Below are positions 1,659 through 14,392 of a stretch of DNA of 45,060 bases, piece by piece. The translations under genes and the position numbers were made by a program. This DNA comes from a virus (Duplodnaviria; Heunggongvirae; Uroviricota; Caudoviricetes). The stretch lies in the IMG/VR virus record IMGVR_UViG_2718217795_000003. One strand, 5' to 3'. Each line of letters starts with the position of its first letter. Position 1 is the stretch's first letter. Under the pieces are notes generated by a model. The model did no database searches, was not told the DNA's origin, and was given only the letters and a program-made list of their open reading frames with translations.

Positions 1659-4130
1659 TTAAGAATCAGCCTGACTCGGGATCAGTTTTTGCCAGATAAC
1701 TGAAACGTATTTTGCCTGGTAACGGGCGTCATCAAGTGCATTATGGCGCTCACCTTCGAATGGAATAGCCGTTCTGGCATCGAAGTCTATGGCTTTCCCC
1801 AGCTCAACGATTGTGCGTACATCGCGATCGTTGTAGTAACGCCACGGGCAGGGGATCCCCTGCCGTTCGTATGAACGGCGCAAAATCGTGTTGTCGAAGT
1901 TGGCTCCATTTCCCCAAACCTGAACAAAAAATTCACCGGAGTTTTCGTCGATAAATTCCCGCAATTGTAACAGTGCATCATCTAACGGGATTTCATCGGT
2001 CATAATGGCAGATTGCGCTTCGCGTGATTGCTTAAGCCACCATTTAATGGTGTCCCGATCAATGACTCCGCCAGCAGTTTCCAGATCGATAGTCTTACTA
2101 AATTCCGGTCCCATATCTCCGGTTTGCGGATCGAAAAATATTGCACCTATTGAGATGATCGGGGCATCAGGATTTTTTCCCATGGTTTCAAGGTCGATCA
2201 TTAGATGGTCACACGTCCTGCTGGTGGATGTGATTTCGTGATGACCGTTCACCTTAATTGAGTGATCTGCCGTCTCGCCAGTTTCATTATCGCTATTGTG
2301 ATGCTGATTGCCGCCAGTGTTCTCCTTGTGTGGATGTTCAGCGCCTTCCATTTCCTCCGGATCATCTTCCTGAACTTCAACCTGATACTCTTCATCGAAT
2401 GTTTCTTGGTATGTTGCGTCGCCCATCACCGCGCCACAATCAGGGCAGTTGCCGCCGCCGGTCTGACCGCAGGCGGTGCAGACTTTTTCCACTTCCTGTT
2501 GCGCCACTGGTTCAGGCTGTTTCGTTTCTGGCTCGTTTTGTAACGCATTTGGGCTGTTTTGTTCCGCTTTTTGGTAGTTCCGTTCCGATTCATGCTGGTT
2601 CTGGTTCACAGAATCGCGGGTCTGGATCCCCTTAACCCATTTCGGATCATTCGGGTCACTAATCCCTTCAACAAATTCACCACGTGATGCAGCAAGCAAC
2701 TTATCGGCGTCAGGCTGGCTGATATTGGCTGCCTGCATAATTTTGTTTACTTCGTCAGCGGTAACTTTTATCGGTTCTGGTTGTTCTGAATCTTCAGCGG
2801 TATCTACATTTTGCGGTAAGCCCGTGTATGTGCCATTTTTTCGGGCAAAATATTCTTCTTTTGTGATTTCAGTGGCGCCAGCAGCCAGTGCCTTATCCAG
2901 ACCAGAAAGTTTGTTTGCGCGACCGTATTTTTCTCCGTCCTTATCTGCGAAGAGGAAATAAAACGGCCCCTCACGCTCTACAGATGGTTCAGCTTCCGGC
3001 GCGGTTTCATTTTTTGGGATATCAGATACCTCAGTTTCCACTGCATCAGTTTGTGTTTCTGATGACTGGAGAACATCAACAGTGCCCAGGTCTGTTTCTT
3101 CATTCTCAAACACGCCCTTTGTCGTCAGGTATTCGCAGATATATTTGTTCAGTGCTACGGGATCTTTGTGAATGTCGATCGGACGCTCACGGACAAGGCC
3201 AAAAATAGTTTGGCGGTCGTAGCGAAGGGCATCAGGCTGTTTGCGCATTGATGCCGAGATACGCTTCCAGTCTTCGCGGTCGTTGTCGATAACTTCTTTT
3301 TTTGCCCAGCGATGGATGCTGCCGTCAATGTTTCCGGCATCCACATCACCAGGCCAGAGAGCGTAGGCCAGTTCGTCATCCAGTGTTTTCCATGTCTGCT
3401 TGTATTCGCGATGAATGGCAGCAATGACCGGGCTGATTTTTCCTGTTGAATTTTCAGTGTACTGTTGATTGGCTCTGGCGCGGGCGAGATCAACAACAGA
3501 CGTGTATTTTCCGGTTTCCTTGCGTTCACCTTCGCGACGTTTTTTCCAGATGCGCATCTCTGCCTGAATTTCGGGCCATTTAGCACCAGGAATACATTTA
3601 TGCTTAACCCACCCAATGGCGTGCAACTTAAGCTCCGGATACATGGCGTTAACTTCTGGCATTTTCATCAACGCTTCAACGATATGTCCGTCGAATGTTG
3701 CCATGTCTTCCTGCAACAATTCCTGTGCGCTAATAACCATATCAACGGTGATGTTTTCACATGTGTCGAACTTAACCATGACAGCGTTCTGTACTTCAGG
3801 GGCCAGCTTGTCAAAAGTGACGTTCAACGGATCGGATTCAGTCTCAACCGGGACAAAAGAAGCAGACTCCTCATCCCAGCGGTTTTCCTGCATATATTCA
3901 GCATCCCATGAATCGAGGGCAGGGCGGGGTATGCCAGGTTTATCCTCGCAGACAATAAATTTATAAGCGGAGTCCTGAGCAGCCGGATAATGTTCCAGGA
4001 ACTGCCAGTGAAATTTTGCTCGAGCACGGCGTTCGTCGCCAGCTTCAATGGCTGTGGCTACAGCCACAGCGCCTTCTTCCCTTGTTGCCAGTTCGTCAGG
4101 AATAGCGGCGCAAATAAAGACTTTACTCAT
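1659..4130 (-). CDS. RecE-like exonuclease (exodeoxyribonuclease VIII-like) with C-terminal DEDD-type 3'-5' exonuclease domain
   Basis: 823-aa ORF; C-terminus has DnaQ-like motifs (MIDLETMG..., ...HNALDDARYQAKY); acidic central linker and a CxxC...CxxC segment (CTACGQTGGGNCPDCG). No RecT/Bet-like partner ORF adjacent. Confidence 0.7.
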   Translation of the reverse strand: MSKVFICAAIPDELATREEGAVAVATAIEAGDERRARAKFHWQFLEHYPAAQDSAYKFIVCEDKPGIPRPALDSWDAEYMQENRWDEESASFVPVETESDPLNVTFDKLAPEVQNAVMVKFDTCENITVDMVISAQELLQEDMATFDGHIVEALMKMPEVNAMYPELKLHAIGWVKHKCIPGAKWPEIQAEMRIWKKRREGERKETGKYTSVVDLARARANQQYTENSTGKISPVIAAIHREYKQTWKTLDDELAYALWPGDVDAGNIDGSIHRWAKKEVIDNDREDWKRISASMRKQPDALRYDRQTIFGLVRERPIDIHKDPVALNKYICEYLTTKGVFENEETDLGTVDVLQSSETQTDAVETEVSDIPKNETAPEAEPSVEREGPFYFLFADKDGEKYGRANKLSGLDKALAAGATEITKEEYFARKNGTYTGLPQNVDTAEDSEQPEPIKVTADEVNKIMQAANISQPDADKLLAASRGEFVEGISDPNDPKWVKGIQTRDSVNQNQHESERNYQKAEQNSPNALQNEPETKQPEPVAQQEVEKVCTACGQTGGGNCPDCGAVMGDATYQETFDEEYQVEVQEDDPEEMEGAEHPHKENTGGNQHHNSDNETGETADHSIKVNGHHEITSTSRTCDHLMIDLETMGKNPDAPIISIGAIFFDPQTGDMGPEFSKTIDLETAGGVIDRDTIKWWLKQSREAQSAIMTDEIPLDDALLQLREFIDENSGEFFVQVWGNGANFDNTILRRSYERQGIPCPWRYYNDRDVRTIVELGKAIDFDARTAIPFEGERHNALDDARYQAKYVSVIWQKLIPSQADS

Positions 4131-4223
4131 TTTGTTTTAACCTCATGACAGATTTAAGGATGAACAAATCCCTGCCATTGCTGGCATATAAGAATGAAAC
4201 CGGATATTTATTACGGAACTGTT

Positions 4224-4415
4224 TTAAAGACCTGCCGGGATTTCGATATTATCCTGGTGAATAACTTTATCGACCGGGTAACAGTTACCGGGAATTTTCT
4301 GTTCGGTTGCTGCTGTCATACACTCCTGCATTGTCCTGTGAACACTGACTGCAATATCAACTGGCTCTCCGGAAACAAGAAAAACTGTCAGAACAAGCGC
4401 AAATGCTGAATTCAT
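4224..4415 (-). CDS. Small secreted/membrane hypothetical protein
   Basis: Start chosen at the internal ATG that overlaps the upstream stop codon as ATGA; N-terminus MNSAFALVLTVFLVSG resembles a signal peptide. Confidence 0.4.
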   Translation of the reverse strand: MNSAFALVLTVFLVSGEPVDIAVSVHRTMQECMTAATEQKIPGNCYPVDKVIHQDNIEIPAGL

Positions 4416-4600
4416 TGTGCACATCCTTTTGGCATCAGACGTAAACGAGCCAGCATTGAAACAATGCATATTTTATTTAATAGCTCCCGTTCTTGTTTTC
4501 TCTTGTTAATGGCATCTTCAGTAAATACAGGGTTACTGATAGTGACACCAATTTCAAAACAACCTTCAGACGTATTAACGTTTGGTAATAACGTTTTCAT
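4412..4600 (-). CDS. Hypothetical small protein
   Basis: ATG at 4598-4600 preceded by GAGGA about 8 nt upstream; stop overlaps the next gene start (ATGA). The longer ORF in the track begins with GTG. Confidence 0.35.
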   Translation of the reverse strand: MKTLLPNVNTSEGCFEIGVTISNPVFTEDAINKRKQERELLNKICIVSMLARLRLMPKGCAQ

Positions 4601-5086
4601 TATCGCGTCCTCAACAATGAATTTTGTGATGCAGTGCCTGGTGCCTCCAGGTGACGTTAACCAGTTAACAATTAACGCCGGATACAGAGAATCCACCCAT
4701 AACACTGTTTTTGGTTTTAACTGTTCCGCGTGCGCTTAGCCGCATTCACCGCATCACAAAATTCACTTTAAAAACGGCGGCAGAGCAGTCACGGAGTAAA
4801 ACTGATACCGCCAAACACCACCAGAAAATTGATAACAGAGGGCGTTGCAGCGGGGTTGTCACTTAAGCGTATGGTCAACCTGACAACTCGGTGTCCTCAA
4901 CGGGGAAGGAATAACCCCGCCATACTTACCGCCGCGCCATTTTGCGGGCTGCCACAACCGGAAGCGCACGGTCGAATTAAATTTAACGACACCGTACAGT
5001 GAGACGAACTTCGCCGTGCGCTTTCGTGTTGTGTGCCTGCTTTTAACCACGTCAGGCGAGGTGGTATCCTTAAAATCACCACAGTT

Positions 5087-6419: not shown

Positions 6420-6496
6420 ATTTAGATATCTTAATAACCCTTGACTTGAGATTCCTTGAGTGATTAGCATTGAGAAAACTCAATATTGGAGGTGCG
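6420..6496. promoter_or_regulatory. Divergent immunity control region with palindromic operator candidate
   Basis: TTGACT at 6441-6446; perfect palindrome ATTGAGAAAACTCAAT at 6469-6484; GGAGGTG RBS for the rightward gene. Confidence 0.45.
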
Positions 6497-6724
6497 ATGT
6501 TTAAATCAGACGTAATTAATTTTTACGGTACGAAAGCCAAAGTAGCGAAAGCTGCTGGCGTTGATCCATCTGCTGTTTCTCAATGGCAAGAGCTGGTTCC
6601 TGAAGGTCGCGCGATGCGTCTACAGGAGGCATCTGGCGGCGAGCTTCTGTATGATCCCAAGGTTTATGACGAATATCGTAAGACGAAGCGGGCGGGGCGG
6701 TTGAACAATGAAAATCACTCCTGA
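6497..6724 (+). CDS. ydaS: Cro/YdaS-like small HTH protein
   Basis: ATG at 6497 with GGAGG 6 nt upstream; 75 aa; divergent from the repressor. Confidence 0.65.
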   Translation: MFKSDVINFYGTKAKVAKAAGVDPSAVSQWQELVPEGRAMRLQEASGGELLYDPKVYDEYRKTKRAGRLNNENHS

Positions 6725-7229
6725 ACAGGCTCGTGAGGCTCTGGATGCCTGGATATGTCGACCAGGAATGACACAGGAGCAGGCGACGATATTAATCACT
6801 GAAGCATTCTGGGCTTTGAAAGAGCGCCCGAACATCGATGTTCAGCGTGTCACAGATGAAGGTGGCGCGGTTGATCAGCGAGCGCTTGGCGTTAATCGAG
6901 TGAAGATATTCGAACGCTGGAAGGCTATCGACACTAGGGATAAGCGTGAAAAGTTCACGGCGCTAGTGCCTGCAATTATGGAGGCTATCCGGATTAATGA
7001 TTTCAGGTTGTATCGTGAAATTAGTGACGGAAAAAGCATCACGTACATGATCGCCGGGTTAAACAAAGAATATGGCGATGTGGTGGAGTCCGGACTGCTT
7101 TTTGCTGATCCTGCCGTAGTGGATCGTGAAACTGACGAACTTATAGAAAAAGCAATTGCTTTCAAACTTGCGTATCGACAGCAATACCAACAAAAAGCTG
7201 GATGGAATTATGAGCCTTCTTTTTGCTGA
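6708..7229 (+). CDS. ydaT: YdaT-like protein (CII-position regulatory/toxic protein)
   Basis: 173-aa ORF overlapping the ydaS-like stop; order repressor / ydaS / ydaT as in Rac. Confidence 0.55.
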   Translation: MKITPEQAREALDAWICRPGMTQEQATILITEAFWALKERPNIDVQRVTDEGGAVDQRALGVNRVKIFERWKAIDTRDKREKFTALVPAIMEAIRINDFRLYREISDGKSITYMIAGLNKEYGDVVESGLLFADPAVVDRETDELIEKAIAFKLAYRQQYQQKAGWNYEPSFC

Positions 7230-8175
7230 ACGCCCACTGGTTATAAACACACAGCTTGCGATGAAGATTGGCTTAAATGAAGCCATTGTGTTGCAGCAGT
7301 TGCATTACTGGTTGAGAGATACCAATTCCGGCATGGAATGTGATGGTGTTCGCTGGATTTACAACACAACGGAACAATGGCTGGAACAGTTCCCATTCTG
7401 GTCAGAGTCAACGTTAAAGCGCGCGTTTGCAAGTCTGAAAACGCTGGGGCTTTTGCGTTGTGAAAAGCTCAATAAATCAAAGCGCGATATGACCAATTTC
7501 TACACGATCAACTATGGGAGCGAGCTTTTAGATGATGGCAAATTGAGCGAATCCATCGGTTCAAAATGCGCCGCTCCATCAGGTCAAAATGACACGATGG
7601 AAGAGGTCAAAATGAAACGCTCCATTGGTTCAAAACGACCCAATGTCATCGGGTCAAAATGGCCCGATGATCCTACAGAGAATACAACAGAGATTACTAC
7701 AGAGAATAAAAACACTTTTCGTCCGGAAGCTTCGCAACCGGACCCGCAGACGGCTGAACAGGATTTTTTAATCCGGCACCCTGGCGCAGTTGTGTTTAGT
7801 GCGAAAAAACGCCAGTGGGGTAGCCAGGAGGATCTGGCGTGTGCGCAGTGGATATGGGGGCGGATCGTGGGTCTCTACGAACAGGCCGCCAGTGATGATG
7901 GCGAGATCATGCGACCAAAAGAGCCTAACTGGACTGTCTGGGCCAATGATGTGCGCACAATGCGGATGCTGGATGGCAGAAGCCACAGACAAATTTGTGA
8001 AATGTTTGGTCGGGTACAGCGGGATCCATTCTGGGTAAAAAACATCATGAGCCCGTCAAAGCTCCGCGAAAAATGGGACGAACTGGTCATCCGCCTGGGG
8101 CGTTCACCTGTACAGCGTTGTGTTAATCATATTTCTGAACCGGATACAGAAATTCCGCCTGGTTTCAGAGGATAA
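7210..8175 (+). CDS. Putative phage replication initiation protein (N-terminal wHTH, internal IGSK repeats, DnaT-like C-terminus)
   Basis: ATG at 7210; 322 aa; three SIGSK/VIGSK repeats; occupies the O-gene position. No P/DnaC-like helicase-loader ORF follows. Confidence 0.6.
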   Translation: MSLLFAERPLVINTQLAMKIGLNEAIVLQQLHYWLRDTNSGMECDGVRWIYNTTEQWLEQFPFWSESTLKRAFASLKTLGLLRCEKLNKSKRDMTNFYTINYGSELLDDGKLSESIGSKCAAPSGQNDTMEEVKMKRSIGSKRPNVIGSKWPDDPTENTTEITTENKNTFRPEASQPDPQTAEQDFLIRHPGAVVFSAKKRQWGSQEDLACAQWIWGRIVGLYEQAASDDGEIMRPKEPNWTVWANDVRTMRMLDGRSHRQICEMFGRVQRDPFWVKNIMSPSKLREKWDELVIRLGRSPVQRCVNHISEPDTEIPPGFRG

Positions 8176-8215
8176 GTTTTGATTTCAGGTCATGAGGTAA
8201 TTTTAAGGGGGACTT

Positions 8216-8617
8216 GTGGCAAAAGTTTTTACACAAGAAGAGCGGGAAAAAATTAAAGGGCAGGTGGTGGAACTCGTGCGCCAGAGCGGTCGTGAGACGT
8301 TACGGCAACTGGAAGCTAAAACAGGTGCGACTAGATATCTGATGAGCGTTCTTGCCAGAGAGCTGGTAGCCAGTGGCGATGTATACAACTCCGGCTACGG
8401 GTTATTCCCGTCTGAACAGGCGCGTAAGGACTGGCAAAACGCCCGCAAAAAACTCTCGAGGGCAAAGGTGAAGAAAACAGCTGTGGTTGATCCGGACGTT
8501 ATCTGGTCGTTACCTGATGGAGAAATACGTCGCTACGACAGTCGCCTAAACATAATCTGTCGCGAGTGCCGGATGAGTGAAGTTATGCAGCGCATACTGG
8601 CATTTTATCAGGGATAA
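8216..8617 (+). CDS. Hypothetical protein with probable winged-helix segment
   Basis: GTG start at 8216 preceded by AAGGGGGA; 133 aa; convergent with the 595-aa gene. Confidence 0.5.
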   Translation: MAKVFTQEEREKIKGQVVELVRQSGRETLRQLEAKTGATRYLMSVLARELVASGDVYNSGYGLFPSEQARKDWQNARKKLSRAKVKKTAVVDPDVIWSLPDGEIRRYDSRLNIICRECRMSEVMQRILAFYQG

Positions 8618-8835
8618 TGTTAGGTATTTTAGACGTTACTAGATTAAAAAGCATTAGTTCAGGAGTGAATTGACATTCTCATTTTTCATGGCACAGGGTA
8701 GATCTGGCGTGGTTGTCCGCTTTGTGCCAAAAGCGGACATCGAATAATTTCAGCAGCACTCAACCTTATTAACCAAATCGCCTCAACTCATATGGACATG
8801 CATCCGGAAGTGCCAACTTCGTAAACTTATTCACT

Positions 8836-10623
8836 TTAAGTCTGAGCCTCACTCTCTTGGCCATAAGTGGCTTGCCAGTATCTCGCCGTAGGGTTCATTA
8901 GAATGTGCAATACAAGCCACCATGCAAAAATGCAGGGAGGTTGGTTGTAGTAACCGGCAGGCACATATCCGTGAGCTAGTTGATTTCGTAAATCACCATA
9001 GATTTTATCTACCAGTAAGGCCTGAAGATTGCCAATTATGTCTACGCCGAAAGCTTCAATAATCAGTGGATTATCTAGTAATCCCTTGAGTCCATTTCGC
9101 TCTTGCGAACCGTCCCCGTGAAGCTGCGATGGTTCCTCACCTTTAATTTTAGCCACATATCTCAGACTATTTTCGAGCTGGGGAATCAACACGTGGCATG
9201 CCGTCATAAAATCTCCATTGAAACCGCAAACCATACCCTTGATGAAAAACTCTTCATGCCCAAACGGGATGAAGGGATGATTGATGAACATATCGCGAAA
9301 AAACGCCTCCGAGATTGGATATTTCATTGTGATCTCATCTGTAGCAGGAATAATTTGCCCAGCTACTGCCAACTCATGGTCGATACGCATTCTCGTCATC
9401 ATTATGGGCCAAATAACTGCCCCATTTGCATCATCAATCCCCAATCCTGCGGGTATGCGAGCAAGTGTCATTCCCTCATGATCAATATGTGTTGATCCAA
9501 ACATCCAAGCTATGCTGTTGGCCTTTTGTTCTATTGCTTGAGCCTTAAGTCTCTCAATGCTGGTTGGCCGACAGACCAGCATCGCAAGTCTGAAAACCAT
9601 ATCAAACAAATCTCTTCCGACTACCCGACTCTTGGCTTGATGGACAATCTCACTAATATCTTGAGGGGGAGACTGAAGGATAGACATCTGGTGACGGGAT
9701 TCGATTTGGTAATCACGCATTTCTTCATACAGCGCAAGACGTTCTATTCGGGTTCCTGGAATATTAGCCAGTGCTTCAATAGCATTCTGCATGCAGGCTG
9801 CCGAAATCATACCGCCATCTTGGAATTTTGACTCTTCCAGATGTGTATCGGCAAGAAGCCGCCAGAATTCAAACTGTGTATCTCTGTCACAGCACCTATT
9901 CGCAATCGGGATTGCGGTTTTACAGGCATCGACGGCAAATGAAAATAATTTTTGAGCCAGATAGTTTTTTGTCAGAAACAGGAGTTCCTGGGCAATAAAA
10001 GATGGCTCACTCACTTTACAGTCGATATCGAGTTGCAGGAGTCGCAGCGGATAAGGTGAATCGCCTTGTTCTCTGGTACGTTCATACTCTGCTAGTAGAT
10101 GTGCCGAAAGCTGATCAAATTCATCCCTGAAATCAGTATGCTTTCGAAAAAAACAACACAGCCTAAGCGCACGCTCTAGGCGTTCTAAAGCACTAACCCA
10201 CGTCCCTTGCGATGTCATAATAGCTATACTGGACGCATAATAAGCACGGACTGCCAGCAAAGGAAAACGGATTCCACCAATTTTACGAACCCAAAGTGTA
10301 TCAGCAATACGAGCTTGAAGTTCGGGTAGCTCTATCGTCGGGCAAAATTGAGAAAGTACCTCCAGCGACAACCCGTTAATGTCATCCGGAATTGCAGATC
10401 TACCTTGGCTGCTTTGAAAGCACGGACCAAATGGTACCTGTGGATTTTCGGGACGAAAGTGAAAACCGCAAATATGGGTTAGCAGTCTTATCTCCGCTCT
10501 TCCATCACCTAGGCTAGAAAGATACTTTGTGATATCAAAGCAGGTAACTGGCAGCTTACTCTGGATTAAGGGGGATAAATCAATAGTGTTAAGTTCGTCG
10601 AGGCTGATATTAATATCGTCCAT
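8836..10623 (-). CDS. Orphan 595-aa protein with C-terminal Rx4H (HEPN-like) motif; candidate defence/abortive-infection effector
   Basis: Long uninterrupted ORF opposite to flanking genes in an AT-richer block; no Walker A motif; motif DLRNQLAHGY (R546..H551, coordinates 8971-8988) about 45 aa from the C-terminus; flanked by 218 bp and about 670 bp of non-coding DNA. Confidence 0.8.
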   Translation of the reverse strand: MDDINISLDELNTIDLSPLIQSKLPVTCFDITKYLSSLGDGRAEIRLLTHICGFHFRPENPQVPFGPCFQSSQGRSAIPDDINGLSLEVLSQFCPTIELPELQARIADTLWVRKIGGIRFPLLAVRAYYASSIAIMTSQGTWVSALERLERALRLCCFFRKHTDFRDEFDQLSAHLLAEYERTREQGDSPYPLRLLQLDIDCKVSEPSFIAQELLFLTKNYLAQKLFSFAVDACKTAIPIANRCCDRDTQFEFWRLLADTHLEESKFQDGGMISAACMQNAIEALANIPGTRIERLALYEEMRDYQIESRHQMSILQSPPQDISEIVHQAKSRVVGRDLFDMVFRLAMLVCRPTSIERLKAQAIEQKANSIAWMFGSTHIDHEGMTLARIPAGLGIDDANGAVIWPIMMTRMRIDHELAVAGQIIPATDEITMKYPISEAFFRDMFINHPFIPFGHEEFFIKGMVCGFNGDFMTACHVLIPQLENSLRYVAKIKGEEPSQLHGDGSQERNGLKGLLDNPLIIEAFGVDIIGNLQALLVDKIYGDLRNQLAHGYVPAGYYNQPPCIFAWWLVLHILMNPTARYWQATYGQESEAQT

Positions 10624-10996
10624 GTCGTCACCTTGATGATTTGTTAATGCGGGGGCAACATTAATAAATGTACTTGAGACCGCAATTTGTCGATGGAGCC
10701 AACATTTATAACTATGTGCTTCTACCCTCTGAATTTTTACATGTGAATTGCTAGCTTGAATAGCTCTATCATTATATACGTGGCACTAAATTATGGCTGT
10801 TTTTCGCTCAAAGCGGACTAGAAGGTTAGCTTGTGTCGGACTTTGCGTATTAAAAGAAGTGCTGGTGGTGACTAGTGGTTGTGCCCCATTTCCACAGAAA
10901 AAATCAGAGAAACTATACCCAATAGTTGTATTGAATCACTGACGAGACAGCCTCATATTCATCAGGACTGGTCTACGTCCAATACAGGAGGTTGTG

Positions 10997-11086
10997 GTGC
11001 TGGTTCTCAAATGTGCGCTGGCTATTACGGCTGTAATGGCGATTTATTGTCTTGCTATTGTTCTTATGGATCGCCTTTCTGACTGA
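10997..11086 (+). CDS. Candidate small hydrophobic peptide (29 aa, GTG start) resembling type I toxin / small membrane protein
   Basis: AGGAGG at 10986-10991, GTG at 10997, ORF M-LVLKCALAITAVMAIYCLAIVLMDRLSD, stop 11084-11086; one predicted TM helix plus charged tail. Not in the ORF track (too short). Confidence 0.3.
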   Translation: MLVLKCALAITAVMAIYCLAIVLMDRLSD

Positions 11087-11297
11087 TTTCACATTGGCGA
11101 GGTAACGGTAGTTAAGTAGAATGGCTGCGGGTGCTTGAGGCTATCTGCCTCGGGCATGAACACCAACGGCAGATAGAGAAAAGCCCCAGTTAACATTACG
11201 CGTCCTGCAAGACGCTTAACATTAATCTGAGGCCAATTTCATGCTAGACATATGTAGGTTAGCCTCTTACGTGCCGAAAGGCAAGGAGAAGCAGGCT

Positions 11298-11453
11298 ATG
11301 AAGCAGCAAAAGGCGATGTTAATCGCCCTGATCGTCATCTGTTTAACCGTCATAGTGACGGCACTGGTAACGAGGAAAGACCTCTGCGAGGTACGAATCC
11401 GAACCGGGCAGACGGAGGTCGCTGTCTTCACAGCTTACGAACCTGAGGAGTAA
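11298..11453 (+). CDS. hok: Hok/Gef-family type I toxin
   Basis: 51-aa product MKQQKAMLIALIVICLTVIVTALVTRKDLCEVRIRTGQTEVAVFTAYEPEE is a canonical Hok family sequence (recalled as HokD/RelF-like); AAGGAG RBS; in-frame upstream extension from 11241 corresponds to the leader/mok region. Confidence 0.85.
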   Translation: MKQQKAMLIALIVICLTVIVTALVTRKDLCEVRIRTGQTEVAVFTAYEPEE

Positions 11454-11522
11454 GAGACCCGGCGAGGGAGAAATCCCTCGCCACCTCTGATGTGGCAGGC
11501 ATCCTCAACGCACCCGCACTTA

Positions 11523-11548
11523 ACCCGCTTCGGCGGGTTTTTGTTTTT
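11523..11548 (+). terminator. Rho-independent terminator after hok
   Basis: ACCCGC-TTCG-GCGGGT hairpin followed by a T-run; a second strong hairpin GGCGAGGGA/TCCCTCGCC lies at about 11461-11482. Confidence 0.6.
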
Positions 11549-11669
11549 ATTTTCAACGCGTTTGAAGTTCTGGACGGTGCCGGAATAGAATCAAAAATAC
11601 TTAAGTAGCGCGCAGGGATAAGAGGGATGGTCCCTTAAAGGGGAGAGCTAATTATCCGGAAGGATTCTG

Positions 11670-11921
11670 ATGATGAACATCGAAGAACTGCGTAAAAATT
11701 TTTGTGAAGATGGCCTCTATGCTGTGTGCGTTGAAAATGGAAATCTTGTTAGTCATTACCGCATTATGTGTTTGCGAAAGAATGGGGCTGCGTTAATTAA
11801 TTTTGTGGATGGTCGAGTGACAGACGGATTTATCTTGCGCGAAGGTGAGTTTGTCACTTCATTACAGGCACTGAAAGAGATCGGAATAAAAGCAGGCTTT
11901 TCAGCTTTTGCAGAAGAATAA
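11670..11921 (+). CDS. Small prophage protein (Rem-like, 83 aa)
   Basis: ATG with GGAAGGA upstream; sequence recalled as similar to the Qin rem product; function unknown. Confidence 0.5.
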   Translation: MMNIEELRKNFCEDGLYAVCVENGNLVSHYRIMCLRKNGAALINFVDGRVTDGFILREGEFVTSLQALKEIGIKAGFSAFAEE

Positions 11922-11987
11922 ACTCATCTACAATCTTGCGCGGGGCTGAACTCCCGCTGAGTAACACCGTGCCACCGGAGAAAACCG

Positions 11988-12266
11988 ATGGCACGCAACG
12001 TAAAATATTACAATTCTGATAATTCGCCCGTTCTTGTCTGCACGCACGAGCGGTATTCTCACGCATTCAAGTCTGAATGGTTCCAACACCCTCCATGCAC
12101 TGAAGAGCAGGCTGAATGGATAATTCAGTGTTACCGCAGGCGCGGATACGAGGTTAAGAAAGCCCTTAGTCTCGACTACCGTCACTGGATAATCTCAGTC
12201 AGATTGCCTTACTCCGAACGCCCACCGCGTCCGTCCCGTACATTCCAGCAACGCATCTGGAGGTAA
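11988..12266 (+). CDS. Hypothetical protein
   Basis: ATG with GGAG 8 nt upstream; 92 aa; ends 1 nt before the DUF968 gene start. Confidence 0.45.
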   Translation: MARNVKYYNSDNSPVLVCTHERYSHAFKSEWFQHPPCTEEQAEWIIQCYRRRGYEVKKALSLDYRHWIISVRLPYSERPPRPSRTFQQRIWR

Positions 12267-12267
12267 C

Positions 12268-13317
12268 GTGCGGGTATTACTTCGACCTGTTCTGGTACCG
12301 GAACTCGGGCTGGTGGTCGTTAAGCCGGGCCGTGAATCCATGCCGGTATTCCACAATACCCGGGTACTGGTGGAGCCGGAACCGAAAAGCATGCGTAATC
12401 TGCCGTCCGGGGTCGTTCCTGCCGTTCGCCAGCCGCTGGTGGAAGACAAAACATTGCTGCCGTTTTTCAGTAACGCACGGGTAATTCGTGCTGCTGGTGG
12501 TGCTGGTGCATTGTCTGACTGGCTGTTGCGCCATATTAAATCCTGCCAGTGGCCACACGGCGATTATCATCACAGCGAAACCGTTATTCACCGATATGGT
12601 ACCGGCGCAATGGTGTTGTGCTGGCACTGCGACAACCAGCTGCGTGACCAGACATCCGAATCACTCGAGCAACTTGCTCATCAAAACCTGTCAGCATGGA
12701 TGATTGACGTCATCGGTCACGCAATAAGCGGTACGCAGGAGCGTGAATTATCTCTGGCTGAATTATCCTGGTGGGCGGTCCGCAATCAGCTGGCGGACGC
12801 GCTACCGGAAGCGGTATTACGTCGCTCGCTGGGATTACCAGCGGAAAAAATCTGCTCGGTGTACCGCGAAAGCGACATCGTACCGGGAGAGCAGACCGCC
12901 ACCAGCATATTGAAACAGCGCACAAAAAATCTTGCACCGTTGCCTCACGCCCACCACCAACAAAACCCATCACAGGAAAAGACGGTGGTAAGCATCACCG
13001 TTGATCCAGAGTCTCCGGAATCTTTCATGAAGCTGCCTAAACGTCACCGGTGGGTTAAGGAGAAATACACACGCTGGGTTAAGACACAGCCGTGTGCTTG
13101 CTGCGGTATGCCAGCCGACGATCCGCATCATCTGATTGGTCACGGGCAAGGCGGAATGGGAACCAAAGCACATGATCTCTTTGTTTTGCCTTTGTGCAGA
13201 AAGCATCACGACGAGTTGCATACGGATACCGTGGCATTTGAAGAGAAGTATGGCTCCCAACTGGAGCTGATTTTTCGATTTATCGATCGCGCGCTGGCAA
13301 TTGGTGTGCTGGCCTAA
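12268..13317 (+). CDS. DUF968-family protein with C-terminal HNH-like Cys/His cluster (YdfU-like)
   Basis: GTG start with GGAGG upstream; 349 aa; C-terminus [43 protein letters not shown]. Confidence 0.7.
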
Positions 13318-13334
13318 TTTTGTGGAGTAAGTTG

Positions 13335-13712
13335 ATGCGTGATATTCAGATGGTTCTTGAGCGTTGGGGGGCATGGGCGGCTAATAATCATGAAGATGTG
13401 ACCTGGTCGTCCATTGCCGCCGGTTTTAAGGGATTAATTCCTTCAAAAGTAAGATCTCGTCCGCAATGCTGTGACGATGACGCGATGATCATTTGTGAAT
13501 GTATGGCTCGCCTGAAAAAAAACAACAGCGATTTACATGATTTATTGGTGGACTATTATGTCGGCGGCATGACTTTTATGGCGCTTGCACGTAAGCATGG
13601 GCGATCTGATTGTTGGGTTGGCAGGATGCTCCAGAAAGCTGAGGGCGTAGTGGAGGGCATGCTGATGGTGTTGGATCTCCGATTGGAGATGGATGCTGAT
13701 TGTTCGAAATAA
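13335..13712 (+). CDS. Q: Late-gene antiterminator Q
   Basis: [24 protein letters not shown]...[18 protein letters not shown] matches lambdoid Q (QuuQ-like) antiterminators; positioned before a strong terminator. Confidence 0.75.
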
Positions 13713-13867: not shown

Positions 13868-14392
13868 TTATTGTTTAACCCATAATAGTTCATTGACATT
13901 GAATCCCAACTTTTGAGCGGTACGCACATAGTCTGCTTTTACATTATCTGGAATAGTTTGGGTCCTTGCCAGAATCCATAGGTATTCTCTGTTCGGACCA
14001 CTGACAAGAGCATACTTATACTCATCATCCAGTTTGATTACATTATAGCCACCATAGAAGGGGCCAAAAAACGAAACTTTCAACGCTGCAGTTTTAGTAT
14101 CTCCAGTAAAGTATGCTTTACCTTCGCTCTCGCTCCATTTGTTTTTCGTTGGATCGTATCCACGGTTAAGTACGCGAATCCCTCCGTCGTTCCGTTTTTC
14201 ATAAGTAGCGCTGACCTGTTCCAGACCACGTTCGAACCAGTTCTCGAGGCGAGCTATTTCATACCATTTTCCGAGGTAGCGGTTGGCGTCAAAATTTGTA
14301 ATCGGCTGCACACCTTTAGGTGGTGTCGGGGCCTTACATGCTATAAGAGTGAAAGAGAGTGCAATGCCAGTCAACACAGGCCATAACTTCAT
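13868..14392 (-). CDS. blc: Bacterial lipocalin Blc-like outer-membrane lipoprotein
   Basis: 174 aa; signal peptide with lipobox LIAC; lipocalin signature GKWYEIARL; reverse-oriented moron between Q and the lysis genes. Confidence 0.85.
   Translation of the reverse strand: MKLWPVLTGIALSFTLIACKAPTPPKGVQPITNFDANRYLGKWYEIARLENWFERGLEQVSATYEKRNDGGIRVLNRGYDPTKNKWSESEGKAYFTGDTKTAALKVSFFGPFYGGYNVIKLDDEYKYALVSGPNREYLWILARTQTIPDNVKADYVRTAQKLGFNVNELLWVKQ

Follow-up and report, generated by a model that had tools for sequence, protein, structure and literature searches.

A predicted HEPN ribonuclease of the DUF7380–DUF4209 family as exchangeable cargo of a Qin-type Escherichia coli prophage

The gene and its cassette

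The gene described here lies in a stretch of 45,060 nucleotides of Caudoviricetes DNA (IMG/VR record IMGVR_UViG_2718217795_000003), the whole of which is referred to as the window. The source is E. coli and the host element is a Qin-type lambdoid prophage integrated beside rspB. A protein-coding open reading frame (ORF) of 595 amino acids with an ATG start occupies 8836..10623 on the minus strand (stop codon included), exactly where a first-pass annotation of the same DNA had placed it from the ORF list, and a Shine–Dalgarno sequence (AAGGTG, 10629..10634, minus strand) was read directly in the sequence 5 nt 5′ of the ATG. The encoded protein is RefSeq WP_021514655.1, annotated as 'DUF4209 (or DUF7380) domain-containing protein'; the annotation of the gene in E. 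coli CFSAN061763 is identical. The C-terminus of the protein is a genuine, strictly conserved predicted HEPN ribonuclease domain and, judged from its sequence and setting, the gene is probably an anti-phage gene.

The gene is carried by 148 of 5,426 complete E. coli genomes; in these it is uninterrupted and essentially without variation (∼100% identity in the 20 best-matching records). Many complete genomes have the 2.6-kb region around it in identical form. When the window was aligned pairwise with three sister Qin-type prophages, homology stopped at 8738–8743 and resumed at 10799–10804. These breaks delimit an exchangeable cargo cassette of ∼2.06 kb (8739..10803) made up of the one ORF, ∼97 nt downstream and ∼180 nt upstream of it. 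The long noncoding flanks described in the first-pass annotation thus belong to the cassette only in part, the segments 8618–8738 and 10800–11240 being backbone common to hundreds of gene-free genomes: ∼1,084 genomes contain the initial 121 nt of the left flank and ∼1,773 the terminal ∼325 nt of the right flank, whereas the full flanks together with the gene occur in only 148–151. The AT-richer character of the block is real but modest, with a GC content of 0.441 for the cassette and 0.450 for the ORF compared with 0.480 on the left, 0.499 on the right and 0.489 in the whole window. No second ORF, and hence no antitoxin or partner gene, is present within 8739–10803.

Other cargo occupies the same site in related prophages. 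In K-12 Qin, ydfW, flxA, ydfV, relB and relE lie between dicC/ydfX and hokD, and nucleotide homology to the window ends at 6987 and restarts at 11284; the position of relBE next to hok given in the first-pass annotation is therefore correct. At the same junction strain E14 carries a 310-amino-acid protein annotated as HEPN that has no Pfam or PADLOC match; because BLASTP found no similarity between it and the 595-amino-acid protein, the two cargos are regarded as independent acquisitions. Strain E371 carries there a GmrSD_N/DUF262 protein (PADLOC NsnA, 4e-28; PD-T4-2_A, 3e-18) together with a Schlafen-AlbA_2-like gene. In isolate 2-101 hokD is directly preceded by a 326-amino-acid hypothetical gene, with a PD-T7-1 gene (7e-157) ∼3 kb farther upstream, although this is not strictly the same junction because the left backbone is missing. 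With relBE, HEPN-annotated and GmrSD-like occupants in sister prophages, the suggested hotspot for addiction and defence cargo finds support, and the DUF977–hokD junction, compared in loci L011, L012, L013 and L002, is a sharply bounded hotspot of cargo exchange in which toxin and defence genes are enriched. A census of the backbone-carrying E. coli genomes (∼1,100–1,800) would probably show more cargo types.

A hairpin with a stem of 9–10 bp (GTCCGCTTT / AAAGCGGAC; 8715..8738) ends exactly at the left breakpoint. It was rejected as a terminator because it is energetically ordinary (folding z-score only −1.2) and has no T-tract. The 9-mer AAAGCGGAC recurs at 10810–10818, 7–12 nt inside the right backbone, and nowhere else in the 45-kb window does it occur in forward orientation. 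Cassettes could be exchanged by recombination or through microhomology at the hairpin and repeat.

Domain composition and the HEPN motif

The protein begins with a DUF7380 domain (amino acids 4–166; 10126..10614, minus strand), matched by Pfam PF24098 with an E value of 3.4e-34 and 118.6 bits (cut-off 27). The structure model of this domain is helical with a small β-element, and R105, D108, W111, Y128 and R151 are nearly invariant in the homologue alignment. It is followed by a central α-helical repeat of solenoid or TPR-like type (amino acids 167–395; 9439..10125, minus strand), which is presumed to act as a scaffold or sensor. The C-terminal domain, which was modelled separately (amino acids 396–595; 8839..9438, minus strand), holds the HEPN fold and includes a match to DUF4209, the C6orf70/ERMARD-type HEPN family (amino acids 484–573; 8905..9174, minus strand; PF13910, E value 3.2e-8, 33.9 bits, cut-off 22.3). 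Both Pfam models exceed their curated gathering thresholds, which places the protein in a two-domain family, and nearly all homologues carry the same two domains. Neither an ATPase nor any other enzymatic domain was given by Pfam, in agreement with the earlier remark that ATPase motifs are absent. An NCBIfam search with the protein gave zero matches, a PHROGs search matched solely families of unknown function and sequence searches of the PDB with the whole protein and with a C-terminal profile returned chance matches only.

A word-indexed search yielded 69 homologues. By exhaustive profile searching, 8,061 representatives at 50% identity were recovered with E ≤ 1e-3, 3,202 of them with E ≤ 1e-30; the best 150 representatives are almost all 550–720 amino acids long and align over the full length. 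The family is represented in Gamma- and Alphaproteobacteria, Cyanobacteria, Chloroflexota, Verrucomicrobiota, Armatimonadota and Acidobacteriota. With a family of this size and two Pfam domains, the designation 'orphan' had to be abandoned. The protein also matched the PADLOC system PDC-S39 over its full length (model PDLC05012, amino acids 43–581 against profile positions 54–602 of 615, E value 2.9e-102; second model PDLC05011, E value 2e-101). The PDC systems were put forward as '145 untested phage defence candidates' found by 'guilt-by-embedding', and the nomination of PDC-S39 goes back to members that lie within BREX, DISARM or type I restriction–modification (R–M) loci (Payne et al., 2024; bioRxiv 10.1101/2024.01.29.577857).

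Near the C-terminus the first-pass annotation had pointed out an Rx4–6H motif and had allowed that it might be due to chance. The bare motif is indeed at chance level: the protein contains four matches, composition shuffles contain a mean of 2.9 and 95% of the shuffles contain at least one. R546/H551, however, is the sole one of the four that is invariant, being present in 39 of 39 aligned full-length homologues with identities down to 23%. Because the motif is so frequent by chance, the assignment of R546/H551 as a HEPN motif rests on this conservation and not on the bare pattern. In the translation and the homologue alignment the catalytic motif reads R546-N-Q-L-A-H551 and is followed by the invariant G552 (8971..8988, minus strand). 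Rx4HG was found in 143 of 144 further family representatives, the residue after the arginine being N in 118, H in 22 and D in one of these 143. A second invariant motif, Q482-L-E484-N-S-L-R488 (9160..9180, minus strand; translation and alignment), is located on the long HEPN helix comprising amino acids 472–493, and the invariant residues in the homologue alignment are G384, Q482, E484, R488, R546, H551 and G552. Distant members vary the second motif (QxEHSxR, QxDNSLR), and QxE(N/H/S)SxR persists with conservative variation in the 144 further representatives. In HEPN enzymes two Rx4–6H motifs form one composite active site.

The structure model of the 595-amino-acid protein was confident throughout. 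Its C-terminal part forms a compact α-helical bundle with a four-helix up-and-down core and combines this fold with a conserved Rx4–6H motif in which the arginine is followed by a polar residue (N, H or D), as is characteristic of HEPN domains. The structural neighbours of the model comprise the stand-alone HEPN proteins 2hsb, 1wwp and 1ufb, Csm6 (6.9 and 6.3) and AbiA (6.7), with HI0074, ST0689, MtlR and kanamycin nucleotidyltransferase lower in the list; the likeness to these neighbours is confined to the generic HEPN core. The HEPN reading therefore stood at both points at which it had been open to computational refutation, namely the predicted fold and the conservation of R546 and H551 among homologues. 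DUF4209/C6orf70 had previously been placed in the HEPN superfamily as a family with a conserved Rx4–6H motif that was predicted to be active, and members had been seen in R–M-related operons (Anantharaman et al., 2013; PMC3710099).

Flanking genes and neighbourhoods of homologues

The immediate neighbours of the gene on both sides are on the plus strand, as had been observed at the outset. To the left (6470–8617) these are a cro-like gene, a YdaT-like gene, a replication gene and DUF977; to the right (11241–13712) they are hokD, rem, ydfU and Q. The left backbone neighbour, a DUF977 family gene (8216..8617, plus strand; ORF list and annotation), closes the replication module; the Pfam match to DUF977 (E value 6e-27) was obtained with the near-identical neighbour gene of locus L014 and not with the window copy. 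L014 itself (JAEWTL010000124.1, 'MAG: Bacillota bacterium') is a 5-kb contig with a 99%-identical copy of the gene and an E. coli prophage DUF977 gene, and is almost certainly mis-binned enterobacterial DNA. The upstream region inside the cassette (10624..10803, minus strand) is the presumed site of the gene's own promoter. A weak minus-strand candidate was read there by eye (TTCAGA, 10733–10728, a spacer of 17 nt and TATAAA, 10710–10705), and a perfect TATAAT is present at 10776–10771 (minus strand) without a −35 element.

The supposedly noncoding right flank contains the regulatory leader of a complete hok/sok type I toxin–antitoxin locus (11129..11453, plus strand; sok/mok leader 11129–11303, hokD coding sequence 11298–11453). 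The sok leader was matched by Rfam RF01794 with 112.7 bits (gathering score 59). The hokD gene of K-12 Qin is without the sok/mok leader, and homology to it begins only at 11284, where relE abuts hokD. A weak match to the Hfq-binding small RNA isrK just 3′ of hokD (11462–11543; 25.7 bits, gathering score 50, E value 0.013) is probably due to chance or to a diverged relative. Just past the Q antiterminator gene there is a second reverse-oriented cargo gene, encoding a Blc-type lipocalin (13868–14392, minus strand; by correspondence with L001), followed by a frameshifted ybgA-like gene and then a helix–turn–helix gene; this locus is a further moron site of the same prophage.

The neighbourhoods of homologues were surveyed in 80 loci from different species, neighbours being taken as genes within two positions of the family member, with no background control for defence-gene enrichment. 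No universal partner gene was found in these loci, the sole conserved one being a PIN gene in one cyanobacterial clade. In some of the 80 loci the neighbours are type I R–M subunits, MADS, Eleos, PbeA, PDC-S46, PDC-S05 or phage integrases, and in some ArdC, RhuM, an FRG-domain protein or a weak Mrr-like nuclease match is tightly linked; most of the loci are not linked to R–M genes. In L032 and L052 the family member is embedded on the same strand among hsdM, hsdS and hsdR. This arrangement recalls prrC inside EcoprrI and agrees with the basis on which PDC-S39 was nominated in PADLOC.

In two very distant lineages the DUF4209 gene is directly followed by a DUF4238 gene (L009, 9761–10927; L015, 4403–5407), itself a reported defence gene (Rst_DUF4238). 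One of these DUF4238-linked homologues is 24% identical to the window protein and has a 4-nt overlap with the neighbouring gene; the other is a Brenneria protein with 83% identity. An ArdC anti-restriction gene precedes the Brenneria homologue and suggests a conjugative element. In Enterobacter and Buttiauxella prophages the homologue is located next to the antiterminator Q, i.e. at the Q-to-lysis moron site. Distant DUF4209 proteins with 22–24% identity over the C-terminal two-thirds are found in the P2-like phages vB_EcoM-569R9 (L094) and P2-EC46 (AM157366.1); in the former the DUF4209 gene (3041–4972) lies between gpA and gpQ, the interval in which P2 carries old/tin.

The cyanobacterial subclade (L047, L056, L057, L059, L065, L068, L072, L075, L081, L087 and L093) has a conserved C-terminal extension of ∼45 amino acids (DPWVKFAGMFKDDPLFDEFVEDMAAYRRELD), which resembles antitoxin tails. 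A PIN-domain (VapC-like) gene of ∼140 amino acids follows, with a 4-nt overlap of the stop codon in ten of these 11 loci and a start 5 nt beyond it in L081. In this subclade the large HEPN protein holds the 'antitoxin' position of a VapBC-like operon, and the arrangement suggests one sensor coupled to two nucleases.

Proposed role and relation to known systems

The protein had been called undescribed. This does not hold, given the full-length match to PDC-S39, a candidate since 2024, and the presence of the exact protein in Table S5 of the DefensePredictor study, where WP_021514655.1 from an ECOR strain is listed as 'Predicted novel defense gene' with a mean log-odds of 4.34 (Science, 2026; PMC13092281). 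The HHblits analysis of the same authors gave a remote link to the AbiJ C-terminal domain (probability 72.8, query coverage 0.23; PMC13092281). The family has been flagged three times independently, in 2013, 2024 and 2026. A defensive role is suggested by context and prediction, that is, by the hotspot, the PDC-S39 assignment, DefensePredictor and the neighbours of homologues.

The account considered somewhat probable is that the gene is a lysogeny-expressed cargo gene ('moron') of the Qin-type prophage and that its product would act in abortive infection as a self-inhibited, sensor-coupled HEPN ribonuclease. The effector would be a single polypeptide in which the DUF7380 domain and the helical-repeat scaffold (together ∼400 amino acids) are joined to the C-terminal DUF4209/C6orf70-type HEPN domain. 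The gene would have its own promoter and run antisense to the pR early-right operon of the phage, so that the effector would be made in the lysogen; this orientation may add transcriptional interference upon prophage induction. The ribonuclease would have to be latent because the cassette is without an antitoxin and the gene is intact and stably kept in 148 genomes, and it is proposed that the N-terminal scaffold (DUF7380 and helical repeats) keeps it inactive and that the same region is the sensor. A phage-derived cue sensed by the scaffold would release or dimerize the HEPN domain, and the active enzyme would cleave cellular and/or phage RNA (tRNA, rRNA or mRNA), halting translation and aborting the infection. 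The lysogen population, and with it the prophage, would thereby be protected.

Several points weigh against this account. The trigger, the RNA target, the dimerization and the autoinhibition all had to be inferred, and the consensus scan gave zero minus-strand promoters and zero terminators for the gene. The DefensePredictor score of 4.3 is modest compared with those of other E. coli DUF4209 proteins (7.4 and 8.1), and neither WP_021514655.1 nor 'DUF4209' appears in Table S6 of that study, which holds the transcription units chosen for screening (PMC13092281); because of this absence the protein presumably lay outside the screen. The searchable open-access literature, from which most subscription-only papers are excluded, contains listings of PDC-S39, DUF4209 and DUF7380 and no experiment. 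Many homologues, moreover, have purely housekeeping neighbours, for example between tauE and carB in V. cholerae and at leuCD in Nostoc. As a possible partner gene, a 160-amino-acid ORF next to the homologue of V. cholerae was rejected, since neither Pfam nor PADLOC matched it and other loci do not conserve it.

Housekeeping neighbours would also suit a selfish or prophage-serving ribonuclease without a role in host defence, either a toxin for addiction or competition between elements, or an RNA-processing or regulatory enzyme of the prophage life cycle. Addiction modules do occupy the junction (relBE in K-12, with hok/sok immediately adjacent), and the eukaryotic DUF4209 proteins C6orf70/ERMARD are predicted to function in RNA processing rather than immunity (PMC3710099). 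The cassette, however, is without an antitoxin partner, and a gene with a life-cycle function should hardly change places with GmrSD-like, relBE or other HEPN cargos. Since, in addition, the distribution across phyla is patchy and linked to mobile elements and the protein was flagged by two independent defence predictors, this explanation is considered unlikely.

The main rival is a 'guard' nuclease of PrrC/RloC type, a reserve defence that a partner immune system such as type I R–M would keep silent and that would be released by phage inhibition of the partner instead of by direct sensing of a phage component. PrrC, whose nuclease domain is of HEPN type, is encoded within the hsd operon of EcoprrI. 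The homologues lying on the same strand among hsdM, hsdS and hsdR in L032 and L052 fit this picture, as do the embedding in BREX, DISARM and type I R–M loci that led to the nomination of PDC-S39 and the occurrence of the family in R–M-related operons (Anantharaman et al., 2013; PMC3710099). The solo prophage copy fits it less well: neither the cassette nor the annotated prophage genes next to it include an R–M gene, an R–M link is missing from most of the 80 loci and the protein does not contain the ABC-ATPase domain of PrrC/RloC. For the window gene a guard function is thus rated quite unlikely.

An anti-defence or signal-degrading enzyme, in which the HEPN domain would cleave an immune signal or RNA (cyclic oligoadenylates, guide or retron RNA) on behalf of the prophage, might be suspected because the gene is phage-borne and Csm6-type HEPN proteins are among the structural neighbours. 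That likeness is limited to the generic HEPN core and Pfam found no CARF or other nucleotide-sensor domain; the antisense orientation to lytic transcription implies expression in the lysogen, a better fit for defence than for counter-defence, and the embedding of relatives inside R–M loci points to a host-side role, so that this function appears very improbable. Equally improbable is an inert cargo gene, catalytically silent or decaying and without current function in the prophage, for although pseudogene fragments of ydfB, ybgA and ydfR (CFSAN061763 annotation) imply that the prophage may be partly defective, 148 complete E. coli genomes carry the ORF undisrupted and in essentially identical form, no catalytic-motif residue has been lost and the structure model is confident throughout.

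A wider proposal, put forward tentatively and regarded as doubtful, is that DUF7380–DUF4209 proteins form a large family (∼8,000 clusters at 50% identity) of single-protein immune sensors in which helical repeats would bind a phage component and thereby switch on the HEPN ribonuclease, that the nuclease module is common to C6orf70/ERMARD and that in cyanobacteria the antitoxin-like tail would wire the sensor to a PIN toxin. If this were true, the human ERMARD gene would be of bacterial immune ancestry and the cyanobacterial form would be a sensor with two nucleases. The E. coli gene itself is a good target for testing and not a discovery, the family being already catalogued as the PDC-S39 candidate. 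Confirmation of the defensive role would move PDC-S39 from the candidate list to the validated systems, as a compact single-gene HEPN defence in a common E. coli prophage, and would make the DUF977–hokD junction of Qin-type prophages a hotspot usable for mining cargo because its boundaries are sharp. The trigger and RNA target would be worth knowing in view of the size of the family and the eukaryotic DUF4209 link. The conceptual gain would be small, since sensor-fused HEPN effectors and prophage hotspots are well established themes.

Among the known systems, the HepT toxins of HEPN/MNT toxin–antitoxin pairs (SO_3166, PDB entry 5yep; PDB entries 7ae2 and 8xdj) are proteins of ∼130–140 amino acids that are neutralized by an adjacent MNT nucleotidyltransferase. 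The 595-amino-acid protein differs from them in its large N-terminal scaffold and in having no MNT gene, and sequence identity is only 7–11%; a type II toxin–antitoxin system, whether HEPN/MNT or another two-gene type, was rejected for the one-ORF cassette with no adjacent antitoxin gene. The likeness to PrrC/RloC consists of the HEPN-type nuclease and, in some DUF4209 family members, the embedding in a type I R–M operon. Membership was rejected, as Pfam and NCBIfam found no N-terminal ABC-ATPase and the N-terminus consists of DUF7380 and helical repeats. Membership of the Abi_C/AbiJ profiles was likewise rejected, no Abi_C Pfam match at E ≤ 1 and no PADLOC Abi model having been obtained.

Tha, the tail-activated HEPN anti-phage system of Staphylococcus aureus prophages, is likewise a single prophage-borne HEPN effector antisense to lytic genes; it is activated by a protein of the incoming phage and then cleaves RNA nonspecifically (PMC11087260). 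It belongs to another host and another protein family and is silenced at induction by ith, a small overlapping antisense gene (PMC11087260). No convincingly conserved Ith-like overlapping antisense gene was found opposite the 595-amino-acid gene. A plus-strand ORF of 130 amino acids was rejected as a counterpart because it is broken in the 83%-identical Brenneria homologue; an antisense ORF of 101 amino acids is open in that homologue too, which as one comparison at 84% nucleotide identity is not evidence.

Comparable in design are HEC-08 (DUF3644 HEPN with Zn ribbons; Payne et al., 2024; bioRxiv 10.1101/2024.01.29.577857) and DS-11 (CBS with HEPN; DefensePredictor, 2026; PMC13092281), validated systems in which mutations of the HEPN catalytic residues abolish defence. 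Both combine a HEPN nuclease with a regulatory or sensor module in one polypeptide, as is predicted here, and differ in HEPN subfamily and accessory domains. With C6orf70/ERMARD the protein shares the PF13910 match, the conserved Rx4–6H motif and the predicted catalytic activity, whereas the eukaryotic proteins are membrane-anchored, have TPR or WD40 fusions and were proposed to act in RNA processing (PMC3710099); no literature on ERMARD as a HEPN enzyme was found. The closest correspondence is that to PDC-S39. Embedding in BREX, DISARM or type I R–M loci does not apply to the window copy and is not required for PADLOC membership; in its full-length hidden Markov model match, its two Pfam domains and its length of ∼600 amino acids the 595-amino-acid protein agrees with this system, of which it is a member.

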